A DNA stretch of 64,000 bases, taken from sequence record PZ543597.1. The stretch is one strand, 5' to 3'. This stretch comes from a phage. The notes beneath the pieces were generated by a model. That model worked only from the letters and a program-made list of their open reading frames with translations, was not told the origin of the DNA and did no database searches. Positions within the stretch are counted from its first letter, which is position 1; every line of letters begins with the position of its first letter. Shown in pieces: positions 1,167-53,080 of the stretch. Made by a program: the position numbers and the translations under genes.

Positions 1167-2624
1167 TTATGCTGGTGATAAAAAGGTAGAAAGTAGTACC
1201 CATTCGCCGTCTTTACGAACGTAAGCTTGGCCATCTTTTGGAGCTTCAGGAATATAACCTGCTTCTTGTAGAGCTTGAACGCTGCTCTGTAAAGAGGATA
1301 TATTGTCTTTAGCTGTATTTACTTCATGTGTGACTGCCGCAATGTTAGTTTCATTCGTTTTTATAGAATTAGTTAATCCTCGTTCTTCAACAGTTGATCC
1401 GTCAGGATTATTTCCATTTATAAGTGAAGTAAGTTCAATAACTTGACCTTTAATTCCTGTTCTATTATTTCCTATTTCAACTTGTATATTTTGAACATTA
1501 TTGTTTAAAACTGAAACTTCTCCTTCAAGCACTGAAACTTTATTTAATAGAGATCCAGAAGGAGACGGTTGTCCTCCGCTGGAGTCAGTTCCAACAATTT
1601 GATTTAACCACGAAACATTCGCTCTTAAACCAGACGAAGTGTTTTCACCAACAATTCCGTTTAAAGACTCAATAGAAGTTGTGTGATTTTTAATTTTTCC
1701 TTTAATACTAGAAGGAATATCATCTGAACCTATAGAAGTTTCAATAGCCGTTAAGCGCTGTTTAACACCTTCACTCTGATTTAATTCATTATTAATAGCT
1801 TCAATGCTACTTTTGTTATTATTAATTTCTGTTATTATAGAAACATTTTCTGGGTATCCAATAGAAGATTTAATTTCTGCTATATCAGAAATTATTAAAG
1901 TTTGTTTATCATCTATGGTGTTTAATCTATTATAAATATTTGGCCCAAAATCTACTGGTTTATTACCAAGTTCATCACGTAATTTACCAACTTCAACAGT
2001 TAATGATCCTACGTCAGATTCAGTAAATTTATTTTCTAATTCACTTAAACGACTGCCTTGTGAAGATAATAATGTACTATTTGTTATTATTCTGTGTTTC
2101 ATTCCTGTGCTAGCATTACCAACAACAGGAAGACCGTTAATGTCTTGGCCAGAATATTGTCCTAATTCCTGTTTAATCCACAATAAATCATTTCTAATTG
2201 TTCTATAAACAGAGTTTTCTTCATCATTAAATGGACCTATATCAGCAATAATTTTGTCAACTGTATTATTAGTTCCAGTTAATATATCAGTGTGTTCACT
2301 GGTAAGTGTCTTTAAATTCGATATGTCATTTTTATTAACACTGATCTGCGATAGTGCTTCTATATCTCCTGATACATCTAAAACTCCTTGAATTGTTTTA
2401 ATATCTTTCTGTGATGTTTCAATGGCAGTTTTAAGAATTCCCACATTTTCATCAAGAACTTCGACGTTTTTAAACACGGAAACAATTGGTCTATTCATTG
2501 ATCCATCATTTCCATACTTAGTACTAGCTCCTAATATTTCTTCACCATTTTTAATCCATGAAATACGTTCCTGACCTTCGTCAGGAACGCTATCAACAAA
2601 AGGTAACTCTTTTAATTCAATCAT
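1167..2624 (-). CDS. wac: fibritin (whisker antigen control)
   Basis: 485-aa ORF with long heptad-repeat region and C-terminal foldon [27 protein letters not shown]. Confidence 0.95.
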
Positions 2625-2633
2625 TTGTAATCC

Positions 2634-4184
2634 TTAGTAATGAACTTTAATAATATAGTTTAATGATATATTCCATGGTCTAGTTTCATAACCAATTAAT
2701 CCTTCACGATTAAGTGTACCATGAGCATCTCTCGGTCCACCTAATTCAAATCCATCATTAGTGAAGTATGAAGCATTATCCCAGTCGGAATATTTTCTAG
2801 TTCCAAGATATCCTTGATAAACTGACGCGCCAAATGGGCCTTCACTTCTGTTATATTCACCCCAACCACCAGCATGTTTATGGTATGACATTTGTTGTGC
2901 CTGAACACCACCAACATGCATTCCGTCACATCCTACGCCCAGTCTATCCTTTCCATAGCCATCTTGTCCACGTTGATTTAAAATATGACCGCCTGTGCCG
3001 GCTCCTCTGACGAAAAGACCCCGCATATCAGGAACGCCAGGATTATTCCAATCGCCACCAAATCTTGTTCCAACTACGTTTCTATAATCAGGAAATTGGT
3101 CACCTGACACGGTTCCACCATGACACATAATCCAACCTGGAGGTGCTGAATCACCCGCAAACATCATAATAGTTCCAACCGGAACTCGTTCGGACGCATA
3201 TCTTTCAGTGGCAACAGGTTGATCGCCATTTTTCCACATTCCACCGCGTGACCAAATTCCATTTGCTGTAAGATGGTCTAAATTTAAAGAACCATTAATA
3301 GTTTGTCCACCACGAGTATTAATTACATCTGCGTTCCATGCTAATGCTCCAGAGCTATCACCTTCAGGGGCAATACCGGCTTGCGTCGTTAATTTAACTA
3401 CTCCACGCATAGAACCGGTAGCTCCTCGACCATTTAGTGTTTCACCTGTTACTGCAACACCACCCAAATTATTATTAATTTCAGTCTGCGTTCCTAGGCG
3501 TATAACACCCTTATATTCATGTGTTGCAACAGAATTCATAAAGGTATACGGGGAAATTGCATATCCTTCGCGGAGAGTTCCTTGACGAATTTGTGCAACA
3601 GTAGATAATTGAACTACTCCTCTCACCGATTCTGTTGCAGTGTCTTCTGAAGGAGCTATTTGCGAAATTAATTTTATTGCAAGTTTTTGGGTTTTTAGCG
3701 GAGTCATCGCAGTAGTATCATCAACTCCAGCCAAAGCTGCAGGTGTAGATGATATTTTAATAACCCCGTTTGATGACTCAGACGAATATCTATTTTTGAA
3801 CACATCGTCAGTGTGGTATTTCAGTTTTTGTGGTGTTATTGATGAATTATTATCTGAGCCTTTTAATGTTTCTTCATTTGTTGAATAACGCGTTAAACCA
3901 TATTTAGTTTCAGTAGCATTTGGATACAATAATCTTGTTGCTAATGTAGCTGGTGTAACGATTTTAGAATTATTAGTTCCATCTAAAACCTCTTGCTCTG
4001 ACGCAATCATTGCTATTCCTTTAACTTCCATAGTTGCATCAGGAATACCATTTACGCCGATATTACTTATTTTTGATAATGCAGACTGTACTGTCGTAAC
4101 AGTGCCAGGAAAATTCGATCCAGTAGGATCGAATTTAACATATTTTGATTCATTTGATACGTGCTGATATGTATTGTTACTCAT
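2634..4184 (-). CDS. 12: short tail fibre gp12
   Basis: 516-aa ORF between gene 11 and wac, Gly/Asn-rich fibre-like sequence; T4 synteny. Confidence 0.9.
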
Positions 4185-4840: not shown

Positions 4841-6645
4841 TATGCAATCCTTATCCAACGGTATACAGTAATAGACGGTTGAATATTACTAATATTAGTA
4901 GGAGGAGTATGTGAAGAGTTTGTTGTTGCGTAGTCTTCACGATATTTTGTATATATAGGACCAGTTTCGTCTGGGTCATATTGACAACCTCCAATAATAA
5001 CTGATCCGTTTTCATCTTCAATTAAAACTTTTTCATCAGTTTTAGTCGCAGGAAGATTTGCGTTCTCAAGTGTCACCGATGTTGTTCCAACTGTTCCACC
5101 GGCAGTATGTGAAGGATTTCCGCTAGAATCTAAATCATTATTGTTTAAAGCAAAGTTTGGATCCGTAACATCATCATTCCATCCTACTAAAACTTGTCCT
5201 TTACCAAATAATTTCCATGAACCAAATCCCATATAAGTCACCGGATTATTTGGATTTATAGCATTTTCATAAATTGAACCTACAGGATAAATGCTATCGA
5301 AAATAGATGATATTGAATTATACGTTCTAGTATAAGAATCAACTTTTTCAACATTTGGCCAACCGATTTTATCAAAATCTGTTAAGGCTACATCACCAGT
5401 AACTTCGGTAGATGATCCTTTACTAACATAACGGTCATCCGTTAATTCAATGATGTCATCTTTTTCTAAAAGAGTTCCTAAATCATTATTGAACCACGTT
5501 ATAACGATTATATCACCTGATTCAAATTTTCTATCAAATAAAAGACTGACAGGTTTTCCATCTTCATATTCTATAGAATAATCTGTGTTAGATTCTTTCC
5601 ATTCACCACCAAGAGATATACATCCTGCTTGCGTATCTGAGTTAGCACCTTCACACAAAAACAGAGGATATCCTGCTGTTCCAGCTTGTTGTTGTAAAAT
5701 TCCATTAAAACGAACTTCAAGAGAATTAGGATTAATAGGTTCTCCAGGAATTAATCCAAATGCAGAGAATGGAATTGATTTCATTGTTGATAAATCAGTA
5801 ACGTAAATACTTCCTTCTAAAGAAGTTTTTGACGTTAATTTTGAATCTAATACTTTTATTTGGCGTCTTGTATATGAACTTCTCCATTGTGATATACCAT
5901 CCATAAATGTTTCAATTTGAACAGTGTCACCAATATTACAAGGCTGTCTTAACCTAATATTAAATCCATCAAGAGGAATCAATTCTCCTTCATTTTCCCC
6001 AGGAGAGCCAAAGTCACTGTTTTCACTAAATACATCGCCGTAATATAATTCATTACCACGGTGTTTTACTCGGATGTTATTAACATTATAGCTAGTTCCG
6101 CGGAAAACATCTAAAAAGTCTGTTTGTCCTTGAACTTCGACTAAAAATTCTTTACGTGCTACATTACTAATATCTGAACTAATAATTTTGTCAATTTGTT
6201 TGTTTTTGACATATTCCCAACGTCCTGGAGCACAATAAACGAGCTCTAAATCACTAAATTGAATATTAATTTCAACTGACGATGACGACCCTTTAATTGT
6301 ATCCCCAGAAGCAGCTACTAAAGTAACTGGATTAATGTTCCATGTTGCAAATACATCCCTAGCTCTAATTACTTTATTATAATCATTAACAGTTCCTTTA
6401 GGAAGTTGTAAAGTTACTCTTCCAGAAGAGGTATTAATAGCGTATGATTTTCCCCACTTAGCTTTTAATGTTTGACCGGATGAAGCATTATAAGTTTTCC
6501 AGGCACCGGCTGAATATGGAACATCTCCATCGCCAAGTTCATAATAAAGTTCATCAAAGTTTTCATTTATTTTTATACCACCTTTACGCAGGTAGTCACC
6601 GGTACCATCATCAACAACATTACCGATATTAATATTTTGTTTCAT
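4840..6645 (-). CDS. 10: baseplate wedge protein gp10
   Basis: 601-aa ORF; size and synteny with T4 gp10. Confidence 0.9.
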
Positions 6646-31121: not shown

Positions 31122-31342
31122 TGGCAAAGATAATTATTGAAGGTTCTAAAGATGTGTTAAATGCTTTCGCAGAATGGTTTAGTAATTCAGGCGAACAGCA
31201 ATTTAATGAAGCGTGGAATATGGGTGATATTAGTGGAATTTATCCTACGACAGAAATTTCTGTTCAGGGATATGGCATTCATGAACCTATTCGTTTAGTT
31301 GAATATGATTTGGGAACGGGCGAGGAAGTCAAATATGATTGA
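31121..31342 (+). CDS. hypothetical protein
   Basis: 73-aa ORF, TAATG-coupled to the GrcA-like gene. Confidence 0.5.
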   Translation: MAKIIIEGSKDVLNAFAEWFSNSGEQQFNEAWNMGDISGIYPTTEISVQGYGIHEPIRLVEYDLGTGEEVKYD

Positions 31343-31601
31343 AGATATTAAAGGTTATAAGCCGCACACTGAAGAGAAAATCGATAAAGTGAATGCTATC
31401 AAAGACGCTGAAGTTCGTTTAGGACTTATCTTTGATGCTTTATATGATGAATTCTGGGAAGCACTAGATAATTGTGAAGACTGTGAATTCGCGAAGAATT
31501 ATGCTGAAAGCCTCGATCAGTTAACTATTGCTAAAACGAAACTCAAAGAATCCAGTATGTGGGCTTGTCGTGCAGTGTTCAAACCAGAGGAAAAATACTA
31601 A
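31335..31601 (+). CDS. small acidic protein at the vs.4 position (candidate Acb2-type cyclic-dinucleotide sponge)
   Basis: 88 aa from [24 protein letters not shown]...; second gene upstream of regB. The Acb2 = T4 Vs.4 link is from literature memory, not a search. Confidence 0.5.
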
Positions 31602-31879
31602 TGACTCAATTAAGCGCAGGGTTTGGTTATGAGTATTATACTGCCCCTCGTCGTGTATCTGTTGCTCCTAAGAAAATTCAAAGTCTTGATGATTTCCAGG
31701 AAGTAGTCCGTAACGCTTTCCAGGACTATGCACGCTATCTTAAAGAAGATTCACAGGACTGTCTCGAAGAAGATGAAATTGCTTACTATACGCAGCGTCT
31801 TGAACAGCTCAAAAATCTACATGAGGTTCGTGCCGAAGTTTCAAAGTCTATGAATAAATTGATTAGATTTAAAGAATAA
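31601..31879 (+). CDS. hypothetical protein (vs.3 position)
   Basis: 92 aa from an ATG overlapping the upstream stop. Confidence 0.5.
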
Positions 31880-31882
31880 CTG

Positions 31883-31911
31883 TTTACTTTTCCTCTTGAC
31901 TGTGGTATAAT
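31883..31911 (+). promoter_or_regulatory. T4-type early promoter upstream of regB
   Basis: -35 TTTACT, 17-bp spacer, TG-extended -10 TATAAT. Confidence 0.7.
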
Positions 31912-31938
31912 TTTTCTATCAGTTAAGAGGAGAATAAC

Positions 31939-32400
31939 ATGACTATCAACACAGAAGTTTTTATCCGTCGAAATAAGCTTCGTCGTCACTTTGAGTCGGA
32001 GTTTCGTCAAATTAACAATGAGATTCGTGAGGCATCAAAAGCAGCAGGGGTCTCATCGTTTCATCTAAAATATTCTCAGCATCTTCTTGATCGTGCAATT
32101 CAACGGGAGATTGATGAGACATATGTTTTTGAATTATTCCATAAAATAAAAGACCATGTTTTAGAAGTTAATGAATTCCTGAGTATGCCTCCGCGTCCTG
32201 ACATTGACGAGGATTTTATTGATGGGGTTGAATATCGTCCTGGGCGTTTAGAAATCACCGATGGAAATCTTTGGCTTGGATTTACAGTTTGTAAACCTAA
32301 TGCGAAGTTCAAAGACCCGTCACTTCAGTGCAGGATGGCAATTATCAATAGTCGTCGTTTACCAGGAAAGGCTTCTAAAGCAGTAATTAAAACTCAATGA
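31939..32400 (+). CDS. regB: RegB site-specific endoribonuclease
   Basis: 153-aa ORF MTINTEVFIRRNKLRRHFESEFRQINNEIREASK...; matches T4 RegB as recalled. Confidence 0.95.
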   Translation: MTINTEVFIRRNKLRRHFESEFRQINNEIREASKAAGVSSFHLKYSQHLLDRAIQREIDETYVFELFHKIKDHVLEVNEFLSMPPRPDIDEDFIDGVEYRPGRLEITDGNLWLGFTVCKPNAKFKDPSLQCRMAIINSRRLPGKASKAVIKTQ

Positions 32401-32407
32401 GGTAAGC

Positions 32408-32953
32408 ATGAGAAAAGCACTACTCGCTGGTCTATTGGCCATTTCAATGATGGCACATAGCTCCGAGCATACTTTCAGTAATGTCCAACTCGATAACATG
32501 CGTTACGCGTATCAATTCGGGGAACAATTTTCTAAGGATGGAAAATATAAAACACACAAAAACATCCATAAGAGCGGATTGGGTCATATAATGGCTGCTA
32601 TTTTGTGGCAAGAAAGCTCTGCCGGAGTTAATTTAAAATCTAAACCAAAGCATCATGCCTATGGAATGTTCCAAAATTATTTGCCTACTATGCGAGCGAG
32701 AGTCAAGGAACTTGGTTATAATATGACCGATGCTGAAATAAAAAGAATGTTGAATAAACGGTCCAATTCAGCTTCCTGGGCGTACATTGAACTTTCTTAT
32801 TGGTTAAATATACATAAGGGTGATATAAGAAAAGCAATATCATCTTATAATTCGGGATGGAATGTTAAAGCAGGTTCTAAATATGCTTCTGAAGTCCTAG
32901 AAAAGGCTAATTACCTTAAAAATAATAAACTTTTGGAAATAGTAAATGACTAA
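32408..32953 (+). CDS. secreted/periplasmic hypothetical protein (vs.1 position)
   Basis: 181-aa ORF with an N-terminal signal peptide (MRKALLAGLLAISMMAHS). Confidence 0.55.
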   Translation: MRKALLAGLLAISMMAHSSEHTFSNVQLDNMRYAYQFGEQFSKDGKYKTHKNIHKSGLGHIMAAILWQESSAGVNLKSKPKHHAYGMFQNYLPTMRARVKELGYNMTDAEIKRMLNKRSNSASWAYIELSYWLNIHKGDIRKAISSYNSGWNVKAGSKYASEVLEKANYLKNNKLLEIVND

Positions 32954-33287
32954 AATTTTGGTTTTATGTATAGGATTAATTTCATTTTCTGTGTTAGCAG
33001 ATACATCATATACTGAAATTAGAGAGTATGTAAACCGTACTGCAGCGGATTATTGCGGGAAAAATAAAGCATGCCAAGCTGAATTTGCGCAGAAATTAAT
33101 ATATGCATATAAAGACGGAGAAAGAGATAAATCAAGCAGATACAAAAACGATACATTATTAAAACGATATGCTAAAAAGTGGAATACCTTAGAATGTTCA
33201 GTTGCGGAGGAGAAAGATAAAGCCGCTTGTCATTCAATGGTTGACCGTTTGGTAGATTCTTATAATCGAGGATTGAGTACTAGATGA
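32946..33287 (+). CDS. signal-peptide protein at the vs position
   Basis: 113-aa ORF with signal peptide MTKILVLCIGLISFSVLA and four Cys; the vs assignment is positional only. Confidence 0.45.
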   Translation: MTKILVLCIGLISFSVLADTSYTEIREYVNRTAADYCGKNKACQAEFAQKLIYAYKDGERDKSSRYKNDTLLKRYAKKWNTLECSVAEEKDKAACHSMVDRLVDSYNRGLSTR

Positions 33288-33751
33288 TTGTAAAATATAT
33301 CAAGGGCGATATTGTCGCCCTTTTCGCTGAAGGTAAAAATATTGCGCATGGATGCAATTGTTTTCATACTATGGGTTCAGGCGTAGCGGGTCAATTAACC
33401 AAAGCTTTCCCTAAAATTTTGGAAGCTGATAAATTACAGACTGAATGGGGTGATGTAACTAAACTCGGTTCTTACTCAGTCTATGAAAAATACTTTAGGA
33501 CTCATAAAGCGTATTGCTTCAACCTTTATACTCAATTTCAACCAGGGCCAAATTTTGAGTATTCCGCTTTAATGAATTGTATGTTAGAATTAAATGAGTT
33601 TGGTGAAAATAAACTGATTAAACCTACAATCTATATGCCTAGGATTGGTGCAGGCATAGGTAAAGGGAACTGGGATATTATTGAGGGGATTTTAGATACA
33701 TATTCCTCTAAATTAGAAATTGTGATTGTTGATTGGGAACCGTTATTATGA
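33284..33751 (+). CDS. macro-domain-like protein (putative ADP-ribose-binding/processing)
   Basis: 155 aa; N-terminal GDI...IAHGCNCFHTMGSGVAGQL and later IYMPRIGAGIGKGNW resemble the macro-domain phosphate-binding loops (TARG1/OARD1-like). Motif-level inference only. Confidence 0.5.
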   Translation: MIVKYIKGDIVALFAEGKNIAHGCNCFHTMGSGVAGQLTKAFPKILEADKLQTEWGDVTKLGSYSVYEKYFRTHKAYCFNLYTQFQPGPNFEYSALMNCMLELNEFGENKLIKPTIYMPRIGAGIGKGNWDIIEGILDTYSSKLEIVIVDWEPLL

Positions 33752-33960
33752 ATATACATTATCCACATCCATATGACCCAAAGAATAAGGTAGTAATTAT
33801 TCGTCAATGGGAACGCATTTGCCGTACTAAATGTCCAATTAATAGTCCGCATGATGTAGATAAAGACTACATTGGAACATTCGTTGAATATACCTTTATT
33901 GATAAGAAAGGTCGTAAACAGCATGTAGAAGAATACTGCTTAAAGGTTACATGGTTATGA
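33748..33960 (+). CDS. hypothetical protein
   Basis: 70 aa from an ATG overlapping the upstream stop (ATGA). Confidence 0.45.
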   Translation: MNIHYPHPYDPKNKVVIIRQWERICRTKCPINSPHDVDKDYIGTFVEYTFIDKKGRKQHVEEYCLKVTWL

Positions 33961-38152: not shown

Positions 38153-38614
38153 ATGATTATTAATGAAAACTCTTGGCACTATAAATTATTCAAACTGTTT
38201 AACGACGAATGGAAACGACCTAAGACACTGTGTGCATACTTTTGGTCTATTGTTATCCCTACATTTTTCGTTTCTTTTTTCGGATGTACTATACTCGCAG
38301 GTCTAACTATTATCTGTGCAGAAATCATACAGAAATGGCTTATTTTTGGTAGTTTATGGACTCTTCTTCCATCGGCATTTATACTTGCACTTTTGGTTGT
38401 TTTACTTATTATCGGTTCATTTGTTATTCCTGCACAACTGCGTGAAAAATATAAAGATTATAAATGGAAAAAGGATTATGCTTTACACGTAGAAAATATT
38501 GATAGGGCGTATAAAGGTTTACCTTCTATTCAACCAAAGAAATCGGTTATCGTTGAATTTTTAAAAGCTCGTAAAGCTAAAGTATGTCCTGTTATTGAAT
38601 ATAAGGCTGAATGA
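38153..38614 (+). CDS. membrane protein (two or three transmembrane segments)
   Basis: 153 aa with hydrophobic segments IVIPTFFVSFFGCTILAGLTIICA and LLPSAFILALLVVLLIIGSFVI; ATGA-coupled to the downstream gene. Confidence 0.55.
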   Translation: MIINENSWHYKLFKLFNDEWKRPKTLCAYFWSIVIPTFFVSFFGCTILAGLTIICAEIIQKWLIFGSLWTLLPSAFILALLVVLLIIGSFVIPAQLREKYKDYKWKKDYALHVENIDRAYKGLPSIQPKKSVIVEFLKARKAKVCPVIEYKAE

Positions 38615-39624
38615 TGAAAACAGTAATGAAAAGCTATTTTGGTAGTCATCTTTATGGAACTTCTACCCCAGAATCTGATGTAGATTTTAAAGAAATCTTT
38701 GTTCCTCCTGCTCGTGATATTCTTATCGGAAATGTTAAAGAGCATATGAGTAAAAACACTAACAACACATCATCTAAAAACACTAAAGATGATATTGACC
38801 ACGAATTGTATAGTCTTAAATATTTCTTTAAATTAGCAGCAGATGGTGAAACTGTAGCGTTAGATATGCTTCACACTCCACCTGAGTTAGTGGTTAAATC
38901 TGATTTGCCTGATGTGTGGAAGTTTATTCAAGACAACCGTTCTCGTTTTTATACGACTAACATGAAATCCTATTTAGGATATGTCCGTAAGCAAGCTTCT
39001 AAATACGGCGTTAAGGGTTCTCGTTTGGCTGCATTACGTGATGTATTGAAAGTAGTTAATCAAATCCCTGAGAAATGGGTTGATTACCAAGAAGATGGTT
39101 CTATTAAGCAGCGTCGTACTAAAGTTGAAGATATTAAGCATCGTCTTCCAGAAAACGAATTCTGTGAATGGGTGTTCCATAATCATGAGAAAACAGGCCC
39201 ACAGACGTTCTACACAGTGTTGGGTCGTAAATATCAGACAACGCTTTCTCTTATTGAGCTTAAGCAGTCACTGAACAAATTAGATGCTGAATACGGTGAA
39301 CGTGCTCGTAAGGCCGAAGCCAATGAAGGTATTGACTGGAAAGCTCTGAGTCATGCTTGCCGTGGTGGACTCCAACTATTGGAAATTTACAAAACTGGTG
39401 ACTTGGTTTATCCACTCCAAGATGCTCCATTTATTCTCGACGTGAAGTTGGGTAAACATCCATTTAAAACGGTTCAAGAGTTTTTGGAAGATGTGGTCGA
39501 TCAAGTAGAAGCAGCATCTACTGAAGCTTCTAAGAACGGTATGCAGCAAAAAGTAGACATGGGTTTTTGGGATGACTTCCTTGAGAGGGTTTATCTTGAA
39601 AACCACCGAAGTTATTATAAATGA
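38611..39624 (+). CDS. nucleotidyltransferase-fold protein (Pol-beta superfamily motif)
   Basis: 337 aa; N-terminal GSHLYGTSTPESDVDF fits the G[SG]x9-13DxD nucleotidyltransferase signature, followed by a long helical domain. Confidence 0.5.
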   Translation: MMKTVMKSYFGSHLYGTSTPESDVDFKEIFVPPARDILIGNVKEHMSKNTNNTSSKNTKDDIDHELYSLKYFFKLAADGETVALDMLHTPPELVVKSDLPDVWKFIQDNRSRFYTTNMKSYLGYVRKQASKYGVKGSRLAALRDVLKVVNQIPEKWVDYQEDGSIKQRRTKVEDIKHRLPENEFCEWVFHNHEKTGPQTFYTVLGRKYQTTLSLIELKQSLNKLDAEYGERARKAEANEGIDWKALSHACRGGLQLLEIYKTGDLVYPLQDAPFILDVKLGKHPFKTVQEFLEDVVDQVEAASTEASKNGMQQKVDMGFWDDFLERVYLENHRSYYK

Positions 39625-39626
39625 TA

Positions 39627-39652
39627 GGGAGCCTTCGGGCTCCCTTTTTTAT
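39627..39652 (+). terminator. intrinsic terminator
   Basis: gggagccttcgggctccc hairpin followed by tttttt. Confidence 0.75.
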
Positions 39653-39741: not shown

Positions 39742-39891
39742 ATGAAAATTACACCAATTGAAGTAAAAAAGTTGATTGACACAGAAGAAATTTCAGAGTG
39801 TTTTGAAAGTTTCTTAGAAGATGCAACTGAAGATAATGCAGTTTATCTCGCTCAGAAAATTATCGAAACTTATTTGGAGAAGAATCAATGA
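39742..39891 (+). CDS. hypothetical small acidic protein
   Basis: 49 aa from an ATG after aaaacaaa; the track ORF starts upstream inside the promoter. Confidence 0.4.
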   Translation: MKITPIEVKKLIDTEEISECFESFLEDATEDNAVYLAQKIIETYLEKNQ

Positions 39892-40151
39892 CAGTTTACG
39901 TAGATGTTTTAATGAATCATGGATGGAAACTTCGCGGTCATCCAACTAAAAATTGTCATATGTTCACTGATGGAGATATTGAAGAGCTTCATGAAATGGC
40001 AGAAGCAATAGGAATGAAACGTTCTTGGTTTCAAGATAAACGCATTAAACATTATGACTTACACGCTCGCCGACGCCAAAAAGCTGTAGAACTTGGAGCT
40101 GTAGAAGTATCTCGCCGTGAAGCAGTAAAAATTTGGCGAACGTTAAAATAA
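39888..40151 (+). CDS. DUF4031-like small protein
   Basis: 87 aa, MTVYVDVLMNHGWKLRGHPTKNCHMFTDGDIEELHEMAEAIGMKRSWFQDKRIKHYDL...; recalled as matching the DUF4031 family pattern. Confidence 0.45.
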   Translation: MTVYVDVLMNHGWKLRGHPTKNCHMFTDGDIEELHEMAEAIGMKRSWFQDKRIKHYDLHARRRQKAVELGAVEVSRREAVKIWRTLK

Positions 40152-40184: not shown

Positions 40185-40220
40185 TACCCTATCAAAACAA
40201 ATGTGAGATTGGAGAATAAA

Positions 40221-41189
40221 ATGAAAACTGTAACTATCAATAAGGGTATCTACTTCGGTAAAGAAATCTCTGGAACTTTTGAGCTCTTAGGTGAATGGTT
40301 CCCAGATAATGCTCCGGTAGATGCACAAGGAGATGGTAAAGTTTTTGTTGAAATTGACGGTAAGCGTCGCGGTGTTTGGGTTTACAAATCAGACATTTCA
40401 TATGATGGTGTAAAAGTTGAAGAAGTTAAAGAATCATATGAAGATATGAAAACCCGCATTAATAAAAGATTTAATGTTATGGGAATGATGACGAATGGTA
40501 TTATTAATGGAAATATTCGTTCATTAATTATCTCTGGCGCAGCAGGTATTGGTAAAACGTATTCTTTAGATAAAGCTTTAAATAAAGCAAATGATATTGG
40601 ATACATTGAATATAAAAGCATTAATGGTAAAATCTCTGGTATTGGTCTTTATGAGCAGCTTTGGAATAATCGTGAAGAGAATTCTGTCCTTTTGATTGAT
40701 GATGTGGATGTTTTCTCTGATATGGACATTCTTAATCTTCTGAAAGCTGCTCTGGACACTGGAGAGACCCGTAAAGTCTGCTGGAGCACCGCATCTTCTT
40801 ACTTAGAAGAAAAAGGCATTGAGCGTGAGTTTGAATTTAAAGGAACGATTGTTTTTATCACAAACGTTGACATTGACCGCGAATTAGACCGTGGTACTAA
40901 ACTTGCTCCACATTTACAAGCATTAGTGTCCCGCTCGGTTTATTTGGATTTGGGTGTTCACACTAATGAAGAAATTATGGTCAGGGTTGAAGATGTTATT
41001 CTTTCAACTGACATGATGCAAAAGCGCGGTCTTTCTGATGAAGAAACTTATAAAGCATTATCATGGATGAAAGTTAATGTTAATCGTTTACGCAATGTTT
41101 CACTGCGTACTGCTCTTTATCTTGCTGACTTTATTATGACCGACAAAAACGGTTGGGAAGAAATTGCTGAGGTTACTCTTCTGAAATAA
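40221..41189 (+). CDS. AAA-type P-loop ATPase
   Basis: 322 aa from ATG 40221; Walker A GAAGIGKT and Walker B LLIDDVD. Confidence 0.6.
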   Translation: MKTVTINKGIYFGKEISGTFELLGEWFPDNAPVDAQGDGKVFVEIDGKRRGVWVYKSDISYDGVKVEEVKESYEDMKTRINKRFNVMGMMTNGIINGNIRSLIISGAAGIGKTYSLDKALNKANDIGYIEYKSINGKISGIGLYEQLWNNREENSVLLIDDVDVFSDMDILNLLKAALDTGETRKVCWSTASSYLEEKGIEREFEFKGTIVFITNVDIDRELDRGTKLAPHLQALVSRSVYLDLGVHTNEEIMVRVEDVILSTDMMQKRGLSDEETYKALSWMKVNVNRLRNVSLRTALYLADFIMTDKNGWEEIAEVTLLK

Positions 41190-41653: not shown

Positions 41654-42181
41654 ATGAACGCTAAAGATATTTTCAACTTAGTAAATTATAACGATGGTAA
41701 ATTTAAATCTGAAGCACAAAGCAAGTTCTTTAATGACATCTCAATCGGAGGTGAAATCACGGTTGATGGAGGACAAATTTACAAATCCCGTTGGAATTGG
41801 ATCGTTATTATCGATGAGATTGGTATTGTAGAAATTTACAAGAATACGAATAAAAATCGTACATTACACTGGTCTCGTGATACTAATGAACAGTACAAAA
41901 AGGATAAAGCATCTAAATTATCTCGTGTAACTCAAGAAGATATTGAGTTCATCAAGAAAGATATTTTGATGTATGATAACTTAATTGCTGAAGAGCAAGC
42001 TGTTATTGATAAATTTGATGAGATTAAAGCTTCTCGTGAAATTCCTGATTTTATGAAAGAATCAGTAAATGAACGATACACTCTCATTTCAGAGCGTATT
42101 GAAACTTACAAAAAGCAAAGAGCTGAACGCCAAAATACTCTTCGGAAGTTTGAAGAACGGTTAAAGACGGTACTCGCATAA
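41654..42181 (+). CDS. hypothetical protein
   Basis: 175-aa ORF with RBS ggaggaacag; C-terminal coiled-coil character. Confidence 0.55.
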   Translation: MNAKDIFNLVNYNDGKFKSEAQSKFFNDISIGGEITVDGGQIYKSRWNWIVIIDEIGIVEIYKNTNKNRTLHWSRDTNEQYKKDKASKLSRVTQEDIEFIKKDILMYDNLIAEEQAVIDKFDEIKASREIPDFMKESVNERYTLISERIETYKKQRAERQNTLRKFEERLKTVLA

Positions 42182-42236
42182 CCGCTTTATACCAAGGATG
42201 GTATAATGGTTCTAAGCCCTTTTAATTGAGATTATT

Positions 42237-42641
42237 ATGAAACAGTTGATAATTAAAAGATTGAATTTATTGATATGTTGTTTATGTATAATAATTGCAT
42301 ATGGTTATTATGCTATTAATGATTATATGCATTATAAAGATTATGATGTTACTGTAGTTAATACCTTTACAGGAACTCAAGGAAAGGGGTCTAGTTTATC
42401 GTTTATTGCTGTATATGAACTCAAAGACGGTTATAGATTTAGTGAATATATTTCCCCAGAGATGTATTCTTCAATAGAAAAAGGTGATAATATTACTGTA
42501 AGTTTACGTCCTTTCGACGTAAAACAGACATTGTTTGATAATATTGTTTGGTTCTTTGGAATGGTATTAGTTCAATCTGTGTGTGGTGCTTATATAGTCT
42601 GTTCCATCTTATTCTGTATATTTAGTAAAATTGAAAATTGA
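42237..42641 (+). CDS. membrane protein
   Basis: 134 aa with N- and C-terminal hydrophobic segments. Confidence 0.5.
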   Translation: MKQLIIKRLNLLICCLCIIIAYGYYAINDYMHYKDYDVTVVNTFTGTQGKGSSLSFIAVYELKDGYRFSEYISPEMYSSIEKGDNITVSLRPFDVKQTLFDNIVWFFGMVLVQSVCGAYIVCSILFCIFSKIEN

Positions 42642-42652
42642 GTGAGGAAAAT

Positions 42653-43540
42653 ATGTCAGTAGTAATTAATAATGTCAATGCAGTAATTAAATCTTTAGTT
42701 AATAAAAAATTAAATGAATGGACTGTACTTCGTCGTGGAGAGCCAGATAAATTTTTTCATAGATTTAACCCAACTTTGGATTTGAATGTTATTGACAGAG
42801 ATGTTCATGCTGAAATTTTAGATAAGTTTAAAGTTGATATTGGATTTGGATTAGAAAAACATTTACAGCGAACAAATGGATCTGGAATGAGTTTATCTAA
42901 TCGCATTATGAAAGCCCTTAATAAAATTGGAGCATTGTCTCGTATTAACGCGAGTGAAATCCTTCGTAATTATAATAAAGGATATGACCTTTATGGTCGA
43001 CTAATGCCGAAGTTATCATTTGACCAAATGATAGCAGATTTGTGGGAAAATCAACGACGATTATTAGCATTAGGCGCTCGATTAGCTAAAGGTCTAGATA
43101 AACAAATGATTTTTAAGACCAATAATACAGAAGACCTTAAATGCTTTAAATTTAGTACTCGTGGAGATGATTATTACATCAGAGCTCGCTCTACAGATTA
43201 TGTTAATATGGGGCATCATCTCTGTTTAGCTTTTGAAGTTTTAAAAGAAGCCGGAACATTAGAATATGTGTCTGGTGCTAAATGTCCGATTGGTTCAAAT
43301 TGCATTTTAATTTATCGCCCAGATGAATCCAGTTCAACTAAATTACCTACAAAACCTGTACCAGTTCGCAGTAATGAAAAACATTCTGAACAAATTGCTT
43401 ATTTTAATAAGCAGATTGAAGAGCTAAATATTTCTATTCAGCAATATGATGATGAAATTTTCAGACTATCTGGATTGAGTAGTAAAGCTAAATCTGAGCG
43501 TGAAAAATTAATTAAAATCGTTGATTTACTTAAATCTTAA
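42653..43540 (+). CDS. paralogue-array protein 1 (globular domain plus C-terminal coiled coil)
   Basis: 295 aa from ATG after gaggaaaat; shared motif GARLAKGLDKQMIFK; C-terminal heptad-repeat tail. Confidence 0.55.
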   Translation: MSVVINNVNAVIKSLVNKKLNEWTVLRRGEPDKFFHRFNPTLDLNVIDRDVHAEILDKFKVDIGFGLEKHLQRTNGSGMSLSNRIMKALNKIGALSRINASEILRNYNKGYDLYGRLMPKLSFDQMIADLWENQRRLLALGARLAKGLDKQMIFKTNNTEDLKCFKFSTRGDDYYIRARSTDYVNMGHHLCLAFEVLKEAGTLEYVSGAKCPIGSNCILIYRPDESSSTKLPTKPVPVRSNEKHSEQIAYFNKQIEELNISIQQYDDEIFRLSGLSSKAKSEREKLIKIVDLLKS

Positions 43541-43548
43541 GGAACACC

Positions 43549-44577
43549 ATGAAAACTCGTTCTCAAATTGAAGATATGGTTCGTAATGCCAGCTATACTC
43601 GTGATGTTATGACATTTTTGTGTGAAAATAATTTAGACCCTGATAAAGTTAATCGTGTTATTCATCACTTTAAGTATACGAATAGCAGTGAATGGGTGCG
43701 TAATTTTAGTAAAGCAGGGTATATTACACAAATGACTGCTCGTGAACAGCTCACCGATTTCTGTAAAACTATTGATTATAAAAATCCTTTGATTGTTCAA
43801 GGCGTTGGTCAAAGTAAGGTCGATTTATCATCTGGATTTTTCAATCCAAATCATTATCGTATTGAATGGAGATTTATTGCTCTATTCCGTAAACAATTAA
43901 AGCAAATTTTGTCTACTGCTAGTCGATTAAAAGGCTCTGATATTAACTTAAAGAACCTGAAATTTGATGGTTATACTCTTCAGATGGAAGTAAGACCGTT
44001 AAAAGAAAATAATAGAACTGCACGAATTAGCTTTAAGCCTAATACTAAAAATTCTCTTTCAATTTGTGAATGTCTTAAATCACAGCTGACAGAAGCATTT
44101 AAGTATATGGATGTTGTTGCTGCTGTTCAATCTAAGATTTTACCTCGTTTTGAGCGAAATTGGGAACATACAACAACATATGAACTTGATATGATCGTTT
44201 CATTTAAATATGAATTTTTGAGAAAGGATGAAATTGTTCAAGAGAAAAAGCAGGAAGTGCAAGATACCTTAAATTTAAATTTATCCAATTACTTATCAAA
44301 CGATCCTAAATGTTGGATGTACAGTTCAAGTAACATAGATGCATGTAAACTTAATAAAGTGAGTTTTCTTCCTACTGAAAATTCAAATTTTAAACCTGTA
44401 GAAAAATGGCACGCTGATGCGATTGAAAAGTCTCTTAAGGCAGTAGATGATGAACTCGTTAAAGCGACCAATGAAATGCTAGAAGCTGAAAAGGCGTTAG
44501 AACAAGCTCAGTCAAGGGTTCAAAATCTGACAAAGCAACGTTCTAAACTGAACAATGCACTAAATGCACTGAACTAG
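43549..44577 (+). CDS. paralogue-array protein 2
   Basis: 342 aa; motif ASRLKGSDINLKNLKF; C-terminal coiled coil ...AEKALEQAQSRVQNLTKQRSKLNNALNALN. Confidence 0.55.
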   Translation: MKTRSQIEDMVRNASYTRDVMTFLCENNLDPDKVNRVIHHFKYTNSSEWVRNFSKAGYITQMTAREQLTDFCKTIDYKNPLIVQGVGQSKVDLSSGFFNPNHYRIEWRFIALFRKQLKQILSTASRLKGSDINLKNLKFDGYTLQMEVRPLKENNRTARISFKPNTKNSLSICECLKSQLTEAFKYMDVVAAVQSKILPRFERNWEHTTTYELDMIVSFKYEFLRKDEIVQEKKQEVQDTLNLNLSNYLSNDPKCWMYSSSNIDACKLNKVSFLPTENSNFKPVEKWHADAIEKSLKAVDDELVKATNEMLEAEKALEQAQSRVQNLTKQRSKLNNALNALN

Positions 44578-44606
44578 TTTACTTTGCCACAAGGATGTGG
44601 TATAAT
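44578..44606 (+). promoter_or_regulatory. T4-type early promoter overlapping the 3' end of the upstream gene
   Basis: -35 TTTACT, 17-bp spacer, TG-extended -10 TATAAT. Confidence 0.6.
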
Positions 44607-44634
44607 GTTCTTACTTTCTACTGAGGAGATTATT

Positions 44635-45636
44635 ATGACTCGTAACGAATATATCAAATCATTCAATAGCGTTATTGATGATAAAGCTATACCGATGTTT
44701 GGCCAAAATAGCGTTCTTTCTATTATCAATCAATGGCTCAATAGTGTTGATGCAAGTATTGTTTCTTCTACTAAATTTATTCATGAAATTCGTAAAATTT
44801 CTAGCCGTGTAGATAAAGATGTTATCAAGAAAACCTTTAAAGAGTCTCGTCTTCTTTCATATTTGGTTAATCGGGATATTCTTGGTAATTTTGGGAAAGA
44901 AATTAAACGAACCAAAGATGTAGTAGGATATAATTGGTTCGGTGATGTTAATTCTTATCATCTTAATAATAAAGAAGACCCTGAGAATATTTTTACTCGT
45001 CGTTGGATTAGTAATTTCAGACTTTTCAAAGGACAGATTCTAAAATCAGCTTCTAAATTATGTTATGGCGATTATCGTCAAATTCATCCTTTGGCTTCTG
45101 ATATGATTATCATAAAAGAATATGAACTTGATAAAAATAAAGTATCTATTTTTGTGAATTATGGATTTTTTACACCAGAAACTAACCAAAAGAATATTAA
45201 TAAATTTTTCTCAATTGCTAGCACTATAACTCGTCAATTAGAGACCGCATTACTTTGTATGGAAACAGTAGAAAATATTCATACATATCCTTTTAAGAAT
45301 ATATGCGGTTGGGAAGGATATAAACTCGTAATTAGCCTTCGTGAAGTGAAATGTGCTTATTCACCTACTGATAAAGAAATTTACCAACAAAAATGTGATG
45401 AAATTGTGAATACTCCTAAAGAAGAAACTACCCTTGAGGAACTAATGGAATGTCTTGATGATTCACCTGAACCGATAGAAATTCGTCCAGAAGTTATTGC
45501 ACTAGAAAAAGCTTATAAAGAAGTTCTAGAAATTTCTAATAAAGCGCAGAAAGAATATGAGCAGGCTAAAAGGATTTGGGAAGAATCTGTTAATCGTCTT
45601 GATCGTCTGGAACAAGCTTTACAGTTAATTAAGTAA
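44635..45636 (+). CDS. paralogue-array protein 3
   Basis: 333 aa from ATG after gaggag; motifs SRLLSY and ASKLCYGDYRQ; C-terminal coiled coil. Confidence 0.55.
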   Translation: MTRNEYIKSFNSVIDDKAIPMFGQNSVLSIINQWLNSVDASIVSSTKFIHEIRKISSRVDKDVIKKTFKESRLLSYLVNRDILGNFGKEIKRTKDVVGYNWFGDVNSYHLNNKEDPENIFTRRWISNFRLFKGQILKSASKLCYGDYRQIHPLASDMIIIKEYELDKNKVSIFVNYGFFTPETNQKNINKFFSIASTITRQLETALLCMETVENIHTYPFKNICGWEGYKLVISLREVKCAYSPTDKEIYQQKCDEIVNTPKEETTLEELMECLDDSPEPIEIRPEVIALEKAYKEVLEISNKAQKEYEQAKRIWEESVNRLDRLEQALQLIK

Positions 45637-45688
45637 TTTAAAGCCAAGGATGGCTCGGAGTATAAATCATTAACCAAGTGAGAAGAAC

Positions 45689-46615
45689 ATGAAAACTCGT
45701 AAACATTATATTGATTATTTTGACAGTCTTATTACTAAACATCGTAATTATCAGATAGGACACAGAGCAGTAATCAATAATATTCTTCGTGATTTTTTAG
45801 ACTATATTGGATGGGAAAACCATATTTGTAAAGATACACAAAATGCGTATTCACATTCTCTTGGTTTTTTGCTCGAGTGGTTCAAACGTTCCCGATTACT
45901 ATCTTCTGTGATAGCTGTTAATAATGTTAAAAAATTTATGTATCCAAGCTACATTGAGACTAATGTATCAAATGCTAGTGTTGTTACATTTAATATTATT
46001 AACGACGTGAAAAGAACTTATTTAGAAGAATGGTTTTCTAAAGATAGTAAAGAAAAATTTGCTAGTGAATTTTCACACGAATTCAATAATAACGTGAATA
46101 TGCTTTTTAAGCATTCTCGTAGACTGTTTTGTCATGGTGATAACCGTACTATTAATGTGAATGTAAAAGACTGGGTTACGGCTAAATTCACTCCATCGTC
46201 CCAGAATGGGCAATTTGAATTGTCAATTATCATTTGTGCTCCGCACGAGATATATAAAAATCTTCCGTATATGAAACCACGCGAAGCTAATAAACACAAT
46301 GAAACTATTAGTTCTTTGGCTTATAATTTACGCGTGTTATTATCTGATATGGATGTAGTCAAATCCTTTGATGATAATACGAATTATGGTCTTTCGCTGT
46401 TTGAAACTAAATTTGTTATTAAATTAAAGGACCCTAGTGAATTTAAACCTACACCAAAATCCAATCATGGAAATGATACTATGAAAGAAGAACGCGAATA
46501 TCTCAGTGCCCGTTTGATTGAAGTTGAAAAACAGATTGAAGAGCATACTAAAGTTCTTAAGGCTTTAACCGCCAAAGCAAATGGTTTACGTAATGCTATT
46601 GAGGTATTGAAATGA
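45689..46615 (+). CDS. paralogue-array protein 4
   Basis: 308 aa; motifs SRLLSS and HSRRLFCHGDNRT; C-terminal coiled coil. Confidence 0.55.
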   Translation: MKTRKHYIDYFDSLITKHRNYQIGHRAVINNILRDFLDYIGWENHICKDTQNAYSHSLGFLLEWFKRSRLLSSVIAVNNVKKFMYPSYIETNVSNASVVTFNIINDVKRTYLEEWFSKDSKEKFASEFSHEFNNNVNMLFKHSRRLFCHGDNRTINVNVKDWVTAKFTPSSQNGQFELSIIICAPHEIYKNLPYMKPREANKHNETISSLAYNLRVLLSDMDVVKSFDDNTNYGLSLFETKFVIKLKDPSEFKPTPKSNHGNDTMKEEREYLSARLIEVEKQIEEHTKVLKALTAKANGLRNAIEVLK

Positions 46616-47001
46616 AAAAGCGTTTATTAGAAGACATTGCAGCTTCAAGTAATTCCAGTTTAATTAAAATTATTATGGCTGGTGAGGAAGATGATATGGA
46701 AATGCGTGGAAAGATTCACGGCTGCGACGATTTAGATTTTAAACCTCCAGCATGGGATGCTATTATGGCTATGGTTGAACGACGTGAAAGAGCTTCTAAA
46801 AACGTTCCTAATTGCCCTGAATGCGGTACTGAACAAGTTCAATTGATTAACTGGCGTAAACCAGAGCTTGAATATAAATGCCGTCAATGTAAACATAAAT
46901 TCAGTAAGCATGCTCCGGAAATGGTTAAATTGCCTGACTCTACTGAGTTCTTTAAAGAACTTGTGAGTGTTCAACCAATGCCTAATAATATTTTGGATTA
47001 A
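46612..47001 (+). CDS. zinc-ribbon protein
   Basis: 129 aa with CPECG...CRQCKH; ATGA-coupled upstream. Confidence 0.5.
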
Positions 47002-47003
47002 AA

Positions 47004-47246
47004 ATGACCAAGCGTAAAGAATATATGGAGGCTGCTGAAAAGGCAGTCCGTGAATTAGCAATAGCTTATTATAATGAACATGGTAAATTTCCTGATAGAT
47101 ACAGCGTGCTTAAATCTGCTTTAACTCGTTCATATAAAAATATGCTATCAGAAGTAAGTGATATTATATACAAACATAAAGAACAAACGGGCCAAAGTCT
47201 TGATTACGACGAGACTTTTAAACAAGTACTAGGAATTAAGGAATAA
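47004..47246 (+). CDS. hypothetical small protein
   Basis: 80-aa ORF immediately upstream of nrdC. Confidence 0.5.
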
Positions 47247-47247
47247 T

Positions 47248-47511
47248 ATGTTTAAAGTATATGGTTATGATAGCAACATTCATAAATGTGTGTATTGCGA
47301 TAATGCAAAACGTCTTTTGACCGTGAAGAAACAGCCGTTTGAATTTATCAACATTATGCCGGAAAAAGGTGTTTTTGATGATGAGAAAATTGCTGAGCTT
47401 CTGACTAAACTAGGTCGTGATACTCAAATCGGCTTGACAATGCCCCAGGTATTTGCTCCTGATGGAAGTCATATTGGTGGATTTGACCAACTGCGAGAAT
47501 ATTTTAAATGA
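47248..47511 (+). CDS. nrdC: glutaredoxin (T4 thioredoxin)
   Basis: 87-aa ORF MFKVYGYDSNIHKCVYCDNAKRLL... with CVYC active site; matches T4 NrdC as recalled. Confidence 0.95.
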   Translation: MFKVYGYDSNIHKCVYCDNAKRLLTVKKQPFEFINIMPEKGVFDDEKIAELLTKLGRDTQIGLTMPQVFAPDGSHIGGFDQLREYFK

Positions 47512-51847: not shown

Positions 51848-52159
51848 ATGATTAGTTTTGAGCGGTATGTGGTAGAGAGTTGGAAAGGTTTTGATATGTT
51901 CGGTAATGACTATTATTTTTATGAATGTAGTCTAAATCCTAGTTTTTGGGCTGGGCGTGAACGAGAACTTGAAGAAATTAATAACCGTGCTGAATTGTTA
52001 GGTGAATTACCTACGGTTTATTTTACCTTTGATGCGTCTGGATTTGTTATCCAGGTTTATTTTCCTGAAGAAAATTCTGGCGATGATTCTGTTAACCCGC
52101 CATACTGGGCTTATCAAGGAATTATTTCTCGTGGAACAAAACTCGAACTTAAAGAATAA
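51848..52159 (+). CDS. hypothetical protein
   Basis: 103-aa ORF upstream of the glutaredoxin-like region. Confidence 0.5.
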   Translation: MISFERYVVESWKGFDMFGNDYYFYECSLNPSFWAGRERELEEINNRAELLGELPTVYFTFDASGFVIQVYFPEENSGDDSVNPPYWAYQGIISRGTKLELKE

Positions 52160-52160
52160 G

Positions 52161-52454
52161 ATTGAAGTCTATGGAATTCCAGATGAAGTAGGTCGTTGCC
52201 CTGGATGTCAATCAGTTACAAAACTTCTAAAGGAGCTCAATGCTCCTTTTACTTTCTATAAAGTTCTTACAAATAATGGTAAGATTGAGTATGATCGTCC
52301 ACTGATTGTATCTCTTGCTAAACGCGCTGGATTCACATCTCTTAACATTCGTTATCCAGTCATTTTCATCAATGATTCTAGACAAAAGAACATTAAACAC
52401 TTCAAAGAAACTCTCATTTCACTTGGATATGATAGAGATATCATAGAAGACTAA
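52161..52454 (+). CDS. glutaredoxin-like protein (NrdH-type redoxin), start codon unresolved
   Basis: KIEVYGIPDEVGRCPGCQSV... with CPGC motif; the reading frame has no in-frame ATG near the domain start; the first codon after the upstream stop is ATT at 52161. Confidence 0.5.
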   Translation: MEVYGIPDEVGRCPGCQSVTKLLKELNAPFTFYKVLTNNGKIEYDRPLIVSLAKRAGFTSLNIRYPVIFINDSRQKNIKHFKETLISLGYDRDIIED

Positions 52455-52552
52455 GACGGGCCCTCTGGGCCTTTCTTTCTCACATTCTGTATATTACCAT
52501 TCTAAGCATCATTCACTTCTTATCATTCCCTAAAATAATTTTCACAAAGTTG

Positions 52553-52581
52553 TTTACAAGAAGTTCAAACTGTGGTATTAT
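52553..52581 (+). promoter_or_regulatory. T4-type early promoter
   Basis: ttcacaaagttg upstream, -35 TTTACA, 17-bp spacer, -10 TATTAT. Confidence 0.65.
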
Positions 52582-52786
52582 TAACATATGAATTGCCTTT
52601 GAGGAATTGATATGGTTATGGTTGATAAAGAAATTAAAAAGGGACAGTATTATCTCATTAATGGTAATGCTGTTCGTGTTACTCATGTAAATAGTTTTGA
52701 AGTTTGCTATATTATACTCAAGTTACATAAACGCATGATTTGCGATCGTGCTGCATTTAGTTCAGTTGCTAAGGAAATTAAACTCC

Positions 52787-53080
52787 ATGGGTAAAACGTA
52801 TCGTCGTAAAGACTTAAAAGTGCGTGATTATGACTATTTCGGAAAGCGTAAAGCTCCTGATGGTGTAAGTCATAAAGATATGGTTGAAAACATTTTTCGC
52901 TCAGATAAATGGCGACGTATGCGAGGTGTTGATTCAGAGGTTAAGAATGAATTGAATCGTCAATTACGTGGTGAAGTAAGAAAGTTGAAAAAATCAGTTT
53001 ACATTGACGATGATTTTGATTATAATATTTCTCAACGAGTTGCTAAACGTAAATCAAACGAGTGCTATCGTTACAGCTGA
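52787..53080 (+). CDS. hypothetical basic protein
   Basis: 97 aa from ATG 52787 (MGKTYRRKDLK). Confidence 0.45.
   Translation: MGKTYRRKDLKVRDYDYFGKRKAPDGVSHKDMVENIFRSDKWRRMRGVDSEVKNELNRQLRGEVRKLKKSVYIDDDFDYNISQRVAKRKSNECYRYS

Follow-up and report, generated by a model that had tools for sequence, protein, structure and literature searches.

The stretch of phage DNA analysed here (sequence record PZ543597.1; 64,000 nucleotides (nt), in the following called the window) carries four consecutive open reading frames (ORFs) on the same strand, for products of 295-342 amino acids (aa) that we refer to as A, B, C and D. An earlier note on this DNA, made by a model from the letters alone, had described them as a tandem array of diverged paralogues, and the ORFs lie exactly where that note had placed them. 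By DNA identity and by comparison with the annotated T4 genome, they are the orthologues of T4 nrdC.6, nrdC.5, nrdC.4 and nrdC.3, respectively, with 93% identity between B and its T4 counterpart and 99% in the case of C. The note had also assigned them, by position, to uncharacterised nrdC.x ORFs of T4. The position is right and corresponds to nrdC.6 to nrdC.3, but the word uncharacterised is outdated for nrdC.5.

The source phage is a Tequatrovirus. Its region 42000-47300 is 99.6% identical at the DNA level to Escherichia phage ECO07P4, and a megablast search with the same region gave matches in 596 phage records, the hosts of which are, judged by name, almost all enterobacteria. When viral contigs were searched for the locus, five near-identical loci and no others were recovered. 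The array is bordered by the gene of the membrane protein nrdC.7 on one side and by nrdC.2, nrdC.1 and nrdC on the other, with gene 49 and nrdD located downstream. All four genes start with ATG and are preceded by a Shine-Dalgarno-like purine run. The coordinates of the genes, of the segments discussed below and of one promoter-like site are collected in Table 1.

Table 1. Features of the four-gene array, with positions in the window
Feature	Position	Strand	Basis
Paralogue A, orthologue of T4 nrdC.6	42653..43540	+	295 aa; phrog_2257, E 1.4e-152; T4 synteny; precomputed Pfam PF26899
Helical core of A, LSRINASEILRNYNK ... QRRLLALGARLAKGLDKQM, aa 95-152	42935..43108	+	Part of the head with the highest conservation in the A family
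Heptad tail of A, aa 242-295, ending KLIKIVDLLKS	43376..43537	+	p 0.003; model helices 245-271 and 277-294
Paralogue B, orthologue of T4 nrdC.5	43549..44577	+	342 aa; Pfam DUF7235 (PF23882), E 1.1e-120, 403 bits; phrog_2351
Helical core of B, ITQMTAREQLTDFCK ... LKQILSTASRLKGSDIN, aa 59-133	43723..43947	+	Aligned to the C core at hhalign E 1.1e-5
Heptad tail of B, aa 286-342, ending KLNNALNALN	44404..44574	+	Conserved across the B family
Promoter-like site, GTTTAC-17 nt-TATAAT	44578..44606	+	In the 57-nt spacer between B and C; 10/12 consensus, extended TG
Paralogue C, orthologue of T4 nrdC.4	44635..45636	+	333 aa; phrog_1435, E 2e-168; precomputed Pfam PF26897
Helical core of C, SRLLSYLVNRDILGNFGK ... 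KGQILKSASKLCYGDYRQ, aa 71-149	44845..45081	+	Profile alignments; model helices
Heptad tail of C, aa 285-333, ending RLEQALQLIK	45487..45633	+	p 0.004; model helix 285-332
Paralogue D, orthologue of T4 nrdC.3	45689..46615	+	308 aa; phrog_1435, E 2.5e-100
Helical core of D, SRLLSSVIAVNNVKKFM ... VNMLFKHSRRLFCHGDNRT, aa 68-154	45890..46150	+	hhalign alignment of C and D
Heptad tail of D, aa 264-308	46478..46612	+	Heptad test p 0.004

Homology and layout of the four proteins

Pairwise BLASTP among the four proteins gave a single weak match, between C and D (E 0.009). Since pairwise comparison was nearly blind in this case, the claim of shared motifs needed profile methods. The profiles comprised orthologues from T4, RB14, RB69 (Mosigvirus), VR25 and TH40 (Gaprivervirus), NC-G and ABTNLS3 (Dhakavirus) and a large protein collection. 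In hhalign comparisons C and D were joined at 98% (E 1.8e-13), and B was joined to C/D at 81.7% over 123 columns with the richer alignments (E 1.1e-5). Moreover, a bridge family of Klebsiella Jiaodaviruses, consisting of Mineola gp080 and three variants that are about 43% identical to it, was linked to C/D at 94.8% (E 5e-8) and to B at 92.4% (E 5e-7). The control families nrdC.8, nrdC.10 and nrdC.11 gave at most 0.8% against A, B, C/D and the bridge family. Of the 43 ORFs of 150-500 aa in the window, the four alone gave 100% with their own profiles or 17-85% with the profile of a sister or of the bridge family; the remaining ORFs of this size stayed at or below 7% against the family profiles. 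The similarity of B, C and D thus goes beyond shared composition, and, at the level of sequence profiles, the paralogy of nrdC.5, nrdC.4 and nrdC.3 is supported.

Other searches stayed mostly within single families. HMMER profiles run against the ORFs of related loci gave between-family reciprocal best matches at E 0.001-0.05 only, and word-seeded protein searches recovered for each protein its own family alone; the matches from these searches that have a phage name are all from enterobacterial phages, and some carry bacterial names. In a full HMMER search, the C/D profile matched 9 of 1.84 billion representatives, none of them from the A or B families and none from outside the phage families, which indicates that a search of a hidden Markov model against sequences is unable to bridge the families. 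In the databases, C and D belong to a single PHROGs family (phrog_1435), and B and A each have one of their own (phrog_2351 and phrog_2257). The DUF7235 model (PF23882; gathering score 30 bits) reaches 11 bits in D (E 0.25), under its threshold, and has no match in A and C. PHROG 1435, 2351 and 2257 and Pfam PF26897, PF23882 and PF26899 already hold the four proteins, as three unconnected families of unknown function, whereas the present comparison connects these families to each other and also, on the basis of predicted fold, to proteins of 300-370 aa from phages of Acinetobacter, Klebsiella, Enterobacter, Pectobacterium, Erwinia, Serratia and Yersinia. The joining of the three database families into one superfamily is new. 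As to further members, profile comparison gave no support for nrdC.8, nrdC.10 and nrdC.11, nor was there support for Acj61p118 or for the 283-aa ORF upstream of nrdC in RB43.

Each protein consists of a fast-evolving head with a conserved helical core, a flexible linker of approximately 25-45 residues and a conserved amphipathic C-terminal helix of approximately 45-55 residues. The head is built of a helical N-terminal part and an alpha/beta domain. Conservation within every family is highest in the helical core and in the tail and lowest in the N-terminal part and the alpha/beta domain. Two motifs are common to the families, a first one of the form (S/T)R(L/I)... and a second one, L..A(S/R)(R/K)L..G.D, which is borne by the helical core. 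The central motifs listed in the earlier note turned out to be the columns that the profile alignments pair, and SRLLS(Y/S), reported there for the third and fourth genes, is indeed found in C and D. In the core of B, residues A64, L68, F71, R126 and N133 are invariant. The core columns of A are paired with the motifs of B and C and fall on predicted helices 94-106, 123-132, 134-144 and 147-150; the corresponding helices in the model of C are 72-84, 119-130, 132-142 and 145-148.

The membership of A had to be judged mainly on predicted structure. hhalign gave 2.2-6.7% for A against B and 2.4-4.2% for A against C/D, with sub-threshold E-values of 0.005-0.02, pairwise BLAST and HMMER found no relationship of A to the others, and no A-family entry is present among the best 50 matches of the C model in BFVD. 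If these values were taken at their word, nrdC.6 would not be a paralogue, its helical head and coiled-coil tail would have arisen by convergence, and the array would consist of three relatives and one unrelated neighbour. We consider this very unlikely, since all sub-threshold alignments of A are collinear and pair the same two motifs, and A agrees with the other proteins in position, length, linker and tail motif. In addition, the gp94 family of Yersinia phages is linked to A at 32-35%, with an E-value of 4.9e-4 at 31.9%, and the same intermediate gave 2-4% against B. The AlphaFold models of A (predicted local distance difference test (pLDDT) 77.6, predicted template modelling score (pTM) 0.64) and C (pLDDT 81.3, pTM 0.66) show an identical order of elements, starting from residue 81 in A and from residue 61 in C. 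From the first motif onwards, both have two helices and a short beta-meander, followed by three helices with the second motif; next comes a long helix flanked by two beta-hairpins, and the models close with a low-confidence linker and a long C-terminal helix.

When the models were compared with BFVD using Foldseek, seven matches of the A model beyond its own family were also matched by the C model. These are proteins of Enterobacter phage IME523 (E 7.8e-7 with the A model and 7.4e-8 with the C model), Pectobacterium phage PM2 (8.3e-6 and 4.1e-8), Acinetobacter phages fHyAci03 (8.8e-6 and 1.6e-7), Acj9 (6.2e-5 and 1.1e-6) and Acj61 (E5E4A2; 1.2e-4 and 3.8e-6) and Yersinia phage fHe-Yen9-01 (1.5e-4 and 8.5e-5), as well as a representative of nrdC.3 itself (fPS-65; 3e-3, with a probability of 0.87, and 7e-8). 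Because the predicted models share their order of elements and have these seven matches in common, A is accepted as a member of the superfamily, on structural and not on sequence grounds. The description of the array as four diverged paralogues can therefore be kept, with profile-profile statistics for nrdC.5, nrdC.4 and nrdC.3, and with predicted fold and collinear sub-threshold alignments for nrdC.6.

To assess the tails, L, I, V, M and A were counted as core residues at the a and d positions of the last 42 residues, and a permutation test was applied. The occupancy was 9/12 in A, 11/12 in B, 9/12 in C and 10/12 in D (p at most 0.004). Over the last 56 aa of B, 15 of the 16 a and d positions were occupied, and none of 5,000 shuffles was as good (p < 0.0002). 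The predicted tail helices of A and C measure about 48-50 residues, and in C the preceding linker (residues 261-284) has a pLDDT below 50. The earlier note had given each protein a heptad tail of about 35 aa; the periodicity is present in all four, but the length is nearer 45-55 aa. Its layout of a globular domain followed by a coiled coil agrees with both AlphaFold models and with the heptad analysis of all four proteins. A terminal pattern, L..(A/I)(L/I/V)..(L/I)(K/N), which was defined post hoc, occurs in all four and in no other among 93 ATG-opening window ORFs of at least 80 aa. Pairwise identity within the A family does not fall below 47% in the tail, whereas its minimum is 9-14% in the N-terminal and alpha/beta segments. 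That the tail is among the most conserved segments of each family argues for a specific role of this part of the protein.

Two observations concern the tails of related phages. The gene annotated as nrdC.5 in RB69 (L007, positions 4973-5875) matches B over residues 50-168 only (E 6e-6), and its C-terminus does not align to the heptad tail. At least one lineage may thus have replaced or lost the tail. In the T4 record NC_000866.4, nrdC.6 (record positions 52066-52893) shows a 1-nt deletion when compared with window positions 43380-43552 (GAGCT-GATAT against GAGCTAAATAT). The resulting frameshift removes the last 37 residues, which form the coiled-coil tail, and the tail is intact in another frame. 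Since nrdC.6 has its full length of 891 nt in the T4 annotation used by HIDEN-SEQ, the deletion in NC_000866.4 probably reflects either an error in sequencing or a difference between strains.

Distribution and divergence

The composition of the array depends on the genus. Tequatrovirus genomes have the order nrdC.6-nrdC.5-nrdC.4-nrdC.3, RB69 has nrdC.6-nrdC.5-nrdC.3, and Gaprivervirus and Dhakavirus have nrdC.6, a small ORF, nrdC.5 and nrdC.4. Klebsiella phage Mineola harbours one clear member at the corresponding location. The superfamily also reaches distant Straboviridae. Acinetobacter phage Acj61 (subfamily Twarogvirinae) has its two structural matches side by side directly upstream of nrdC, and both have heptad-type tails.

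Within Tequatrovirus, the rate of nonsynonymous substitution (dN) is 0.015-0.19 for the four genes, compared to 0.001-0.003 for nrdC, gp49 and nrdC.1, and the ratio of nonsynonymous to synonymous substitution (dN/dS) is 0.10-0.30 for the four, compared to 0.01-0.05 for the same three genes. For nrdC.3, two allele classes are present in Tequatrovirus, one with about 140 records that are at least 90% identical and one with 313 records at 60-80%, and the flanking DNA is still more than 90% identical. Similarly, Mineola gp080 (L014, positions 5307-6287) is found across Jiaodavirus records at 100% identity in 2 and at about 43% in 140. The diversification consists of raised dN and deep allele classes and is not a demonstration of positive selection; gene-wide positive selection is ruled out by the dN/dS of 0.10-0.30. 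Of the strong diversification under selection that had been proposed for these genes, the raised dN and the deep allele classes were thus recovered, but dN/dS stays below 1.

The protein P0119 (contigs up to 167 kb) is a natural chimera of 299 aa, in which an N-terminal part that consists of residues from about 146 to 265 of nrdC.5 is fused to a segment of the nrdC.3 type that extends from the central motif to the tail. The junction contains a short NKV/NNV microhomology. The chimera implies a deletion that removed nrdC.4 and joined two paralogues in register.

Function and competing explanations

T4 clones that miss a genome segment do not plate on Escherichia coli ECOR17, and plating is restored by deletion of dsr1 in the host (PMC9391042). 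Expression of T4 nrdC.5 restores the infection of dsr1-carrying MG1655 by the deletion mutant (PMC9391042; Srikant, Guegler and Laub 2022). The SIR2 NADase protein Dsr1 has a sensor homologous to that of Avs7, and its trigger is a phage major capsid protein (PMC13581612). B is the orthologue of T4 NrdC.5 by identity and position. C and D are homologous to NrdC.5 by profile and A by fold, and these three differ from it in that they have no DUF7235 match. Two genes close to the array encode inhibitors of other defences, as nrdC.1 inhibits Septu (bioRxiv 10.1101/2025.11.20.689424) and gp49.2 inhibits OLD (PMC13096335). Both lie, like the array, in the early, dispensable, hyperplastic segment from gene 49 to mobD and are small accessory proteins whose benefit is specific to certain strains; they differ in their size of 80-106 aa, are unrelated to the superfamily and do not have the head-linker-tail layout. 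In the HIDEN-SEQ data, T4 nrdC.3 to nrdC.6 tolerate transposon insertions (79/82 to 97/101 sites), and nrdC.1-6 can be deleted (PMC9825161), so none of the four genes is required in the laboratory host. The role in host interaction that the earlier note had suggested is in line with the restored plating on Dsr1 cells, with the adjoining inhibitors and with this dispensability. Our literature search found no paper that ties nrdC.3, nrdC.4 or nrdC.6 to a function or to nrdC.5, and scans with PADLOC and NCBIfam gave coiled-coil noise alone (BrxC, PgrA).

We regard it as fairly probable that the four genes form an early-transcribed, dispensable array of paralogous counter-defence proteins. In such an array, B would bind Dsr1 directly and would block either the recognition of the trigger or the activation of the NADase. 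The model for this step is DSAD1, the inhibitor of DSR2 from phages of the SPbeta group, which is a phage protein neutralising a defence-associated sirtuin NADase, the C-terminal sensor of which detects a virion protein. We put DSAD1 forward as a functional analogy for NrdC.5; homology to it in sequence or fold was not found. A, C and D may each use this scaffold to target further immune sensors of the host, the specificity being provided by the variable head. The tail would act as a coiled coil, homo- or hetero-oligomeric, and give avidity against oligomeric defence proteins; alternatively, it might dock onto a shared partner.

Several observations weigh against this explanation. The functional data are restricted to nrdC.5 and consist of a complementation phenotype, and the main text of HIDEN-SEQ names nrdC.1 as an anti-defence hit and none of the four. 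When B and the A and C/D family profiles were used in a PDB sequence search, the best match had an E-value of 0.017 and the proteins found were unrelated; without a convincing PDB match there is no tie to a solved anti-defence protein. The structure models cover A and C only, and the tie of A to the others is structural, its profile alignments having remained under the threshold. Many core positions of the tails are occupied by alanine. The gene-wide dN/dS, which never exceeds 1, does not speak for an arms race, and A is conserved at 95-99% in most Tequatroviruses, unlike a fast-moving interface.

Some of these points would also fit true paralogues of which only nrdC.5 serves counter-defence, while the scaffold has been reused in the others for early accessory roles, for example in taking over the host, in excluding competing phages or in modulating host pathways. 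That nrdC.5 is the sole gene with functional data, that A is highly conserved within the genus, that the genes are non-essential on K-12, which is compatible with any accessory role, and that the hyperplastic regions of T4 contain accessory genes of many kinds, are all in favour of this possibility. Nevertheless, we think it rather unlikely, as the neighbours with an assigned function are all defence inhibitors, and the deep allele classes and the differences in copy number among genera are most easily explained by selection through variable host factors. An auxiliary part in phage nucleotide metabolism, as suggested by the gene names, by the location between nrdC/nrdD and tk and by the label thioredoxin in many GenBank records, deserves next to no credence. 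Pfam, NCBIfam and PDB sequence searches revealed no thioredoxin or other enzyme domain, the Pfam and NCBIfam scans of the four proteins contained no thioredoxin family, and the genes are dispensable and far more variable than nrdC or nrdD.

Two further proposals make use of virion proteins. The four proteins might be decoys that mimic a phage structural protein, with an alpha/beta domain taken from a tail-terminator or tail-completion fold that would soak up sensors of virion proteins, and with tails that would form a multi-specific hetero-oligomer. The candidate source of such a fold would be the terminator and completion proteins of phage tails (lambda gpU, T5 p142, SPP1 gp17-like). We hold this to be quite improbable. 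A broader proposal, which we consider doubtful, is a modular anti-sensor platform that extends across the Straboviridae. In this platform, hypervariable heads, possibly derived from virion proteins, would each block a different pattern-recognition sensor, for instance the Avs7-type sensor domain that is common to Dsr1 and many effectors, the conserved tails would zip paralogues into a hetero-oligomeric, multi-specific inhibitor, and whole alleles would be swapped between phages by recombination to track host immunity.

T4 is the best-studied virulent phage, and about half of its genes are of unknown function. In the present analysis, three database families listed as unknown become a single superfamily with a defined architecture and with one member that has a counter-defence phenotype. 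Three anonymous T4 genes, together with their counterparts in Klebsiella, Acinetobacter, Enterobacter, Yersinia and other phages of therapeutic type, become candidates for screens of defence inhibitors. The layout also offers a structure-function hypothesis, in which the variable head would determine the specificity and the conserved tail the assembly. Moreover, deep allele classes in otherwise near-identical genomes may help to explain differences in host range between close phages. Accessory counter-defence genes in a hyperplastic region are a familiar kind of system, and the advance is therefore incremental and not conceptual.

Neighbouring genes and their annotation

In many genomes, nrdC.2 to nrdC.11, the four genes of the array included, are labelled thioredoxin, and a domain of this kind is absent from all of them. 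It appears that the label was propagated from the name of the gene; the real NrdC is encoded by an 87-aa ORF at 47248-47511. Further upstream in the window, nrdC.11 (38611-39624) matches the RlaP nucleotidyltransferase family (E 2.4e-11) and is directly followed by a strong hairpin and a run of T (39626-39645). Another ORF of 87 aa (39888-40151) matches DUF4031 (E 8e-22). No gene is listed between nrdC.11 and nrdC.10 in the T4 reference annotation, so the DUF4031 ORF appears to be absent there. In Klebsiella phage Mineola, a DUF4031 gene is annotated shortly upstream of the family member. The product of nrdC.10 (40203-41189) contains a Walker A motif and has weak matches to NTPases of the AAA/STAND type (E 6e-5 to 5e-4).

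On the other side of the array, the start of nrdC.2 (46612-47001) overlaps the stop of nrdC.3 (ATGA). nrdC.2 encodes 129 aa here and in RB14, compared to 104 aa in T4, and its product carries a double CxxC zinc-ribbon signature (Zn_ribbon_8, E 6.6e-6). A scan for promoters and terminators showed overall no enrichment over shuffled sequences, the single noteworthy site being the promoter-like site in front of nrdC.4, which overlaps a small hairpin (44585-44602). We take this site to resemble the early-promoter consensus of T4. If it were an early promoter, nrdC.4 and nrdC.3 would have a separate start, and we mention this as a lead only.

In Acinetobacter phage Acj61, two genes annotated as nicotinamide phosphoribosyltransferase and ribose-phosphate pyrophosphokinase (L013, positions 1229-3938; record positions 31228-33937) lie about 30 kb from the two family members. 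This pair is of the type that rebuilds nicotinamide adenine dinucleotide and is reported to counter NADase defences. Acj61 may combine a metabolic strategy with one based on protein inhibitors.

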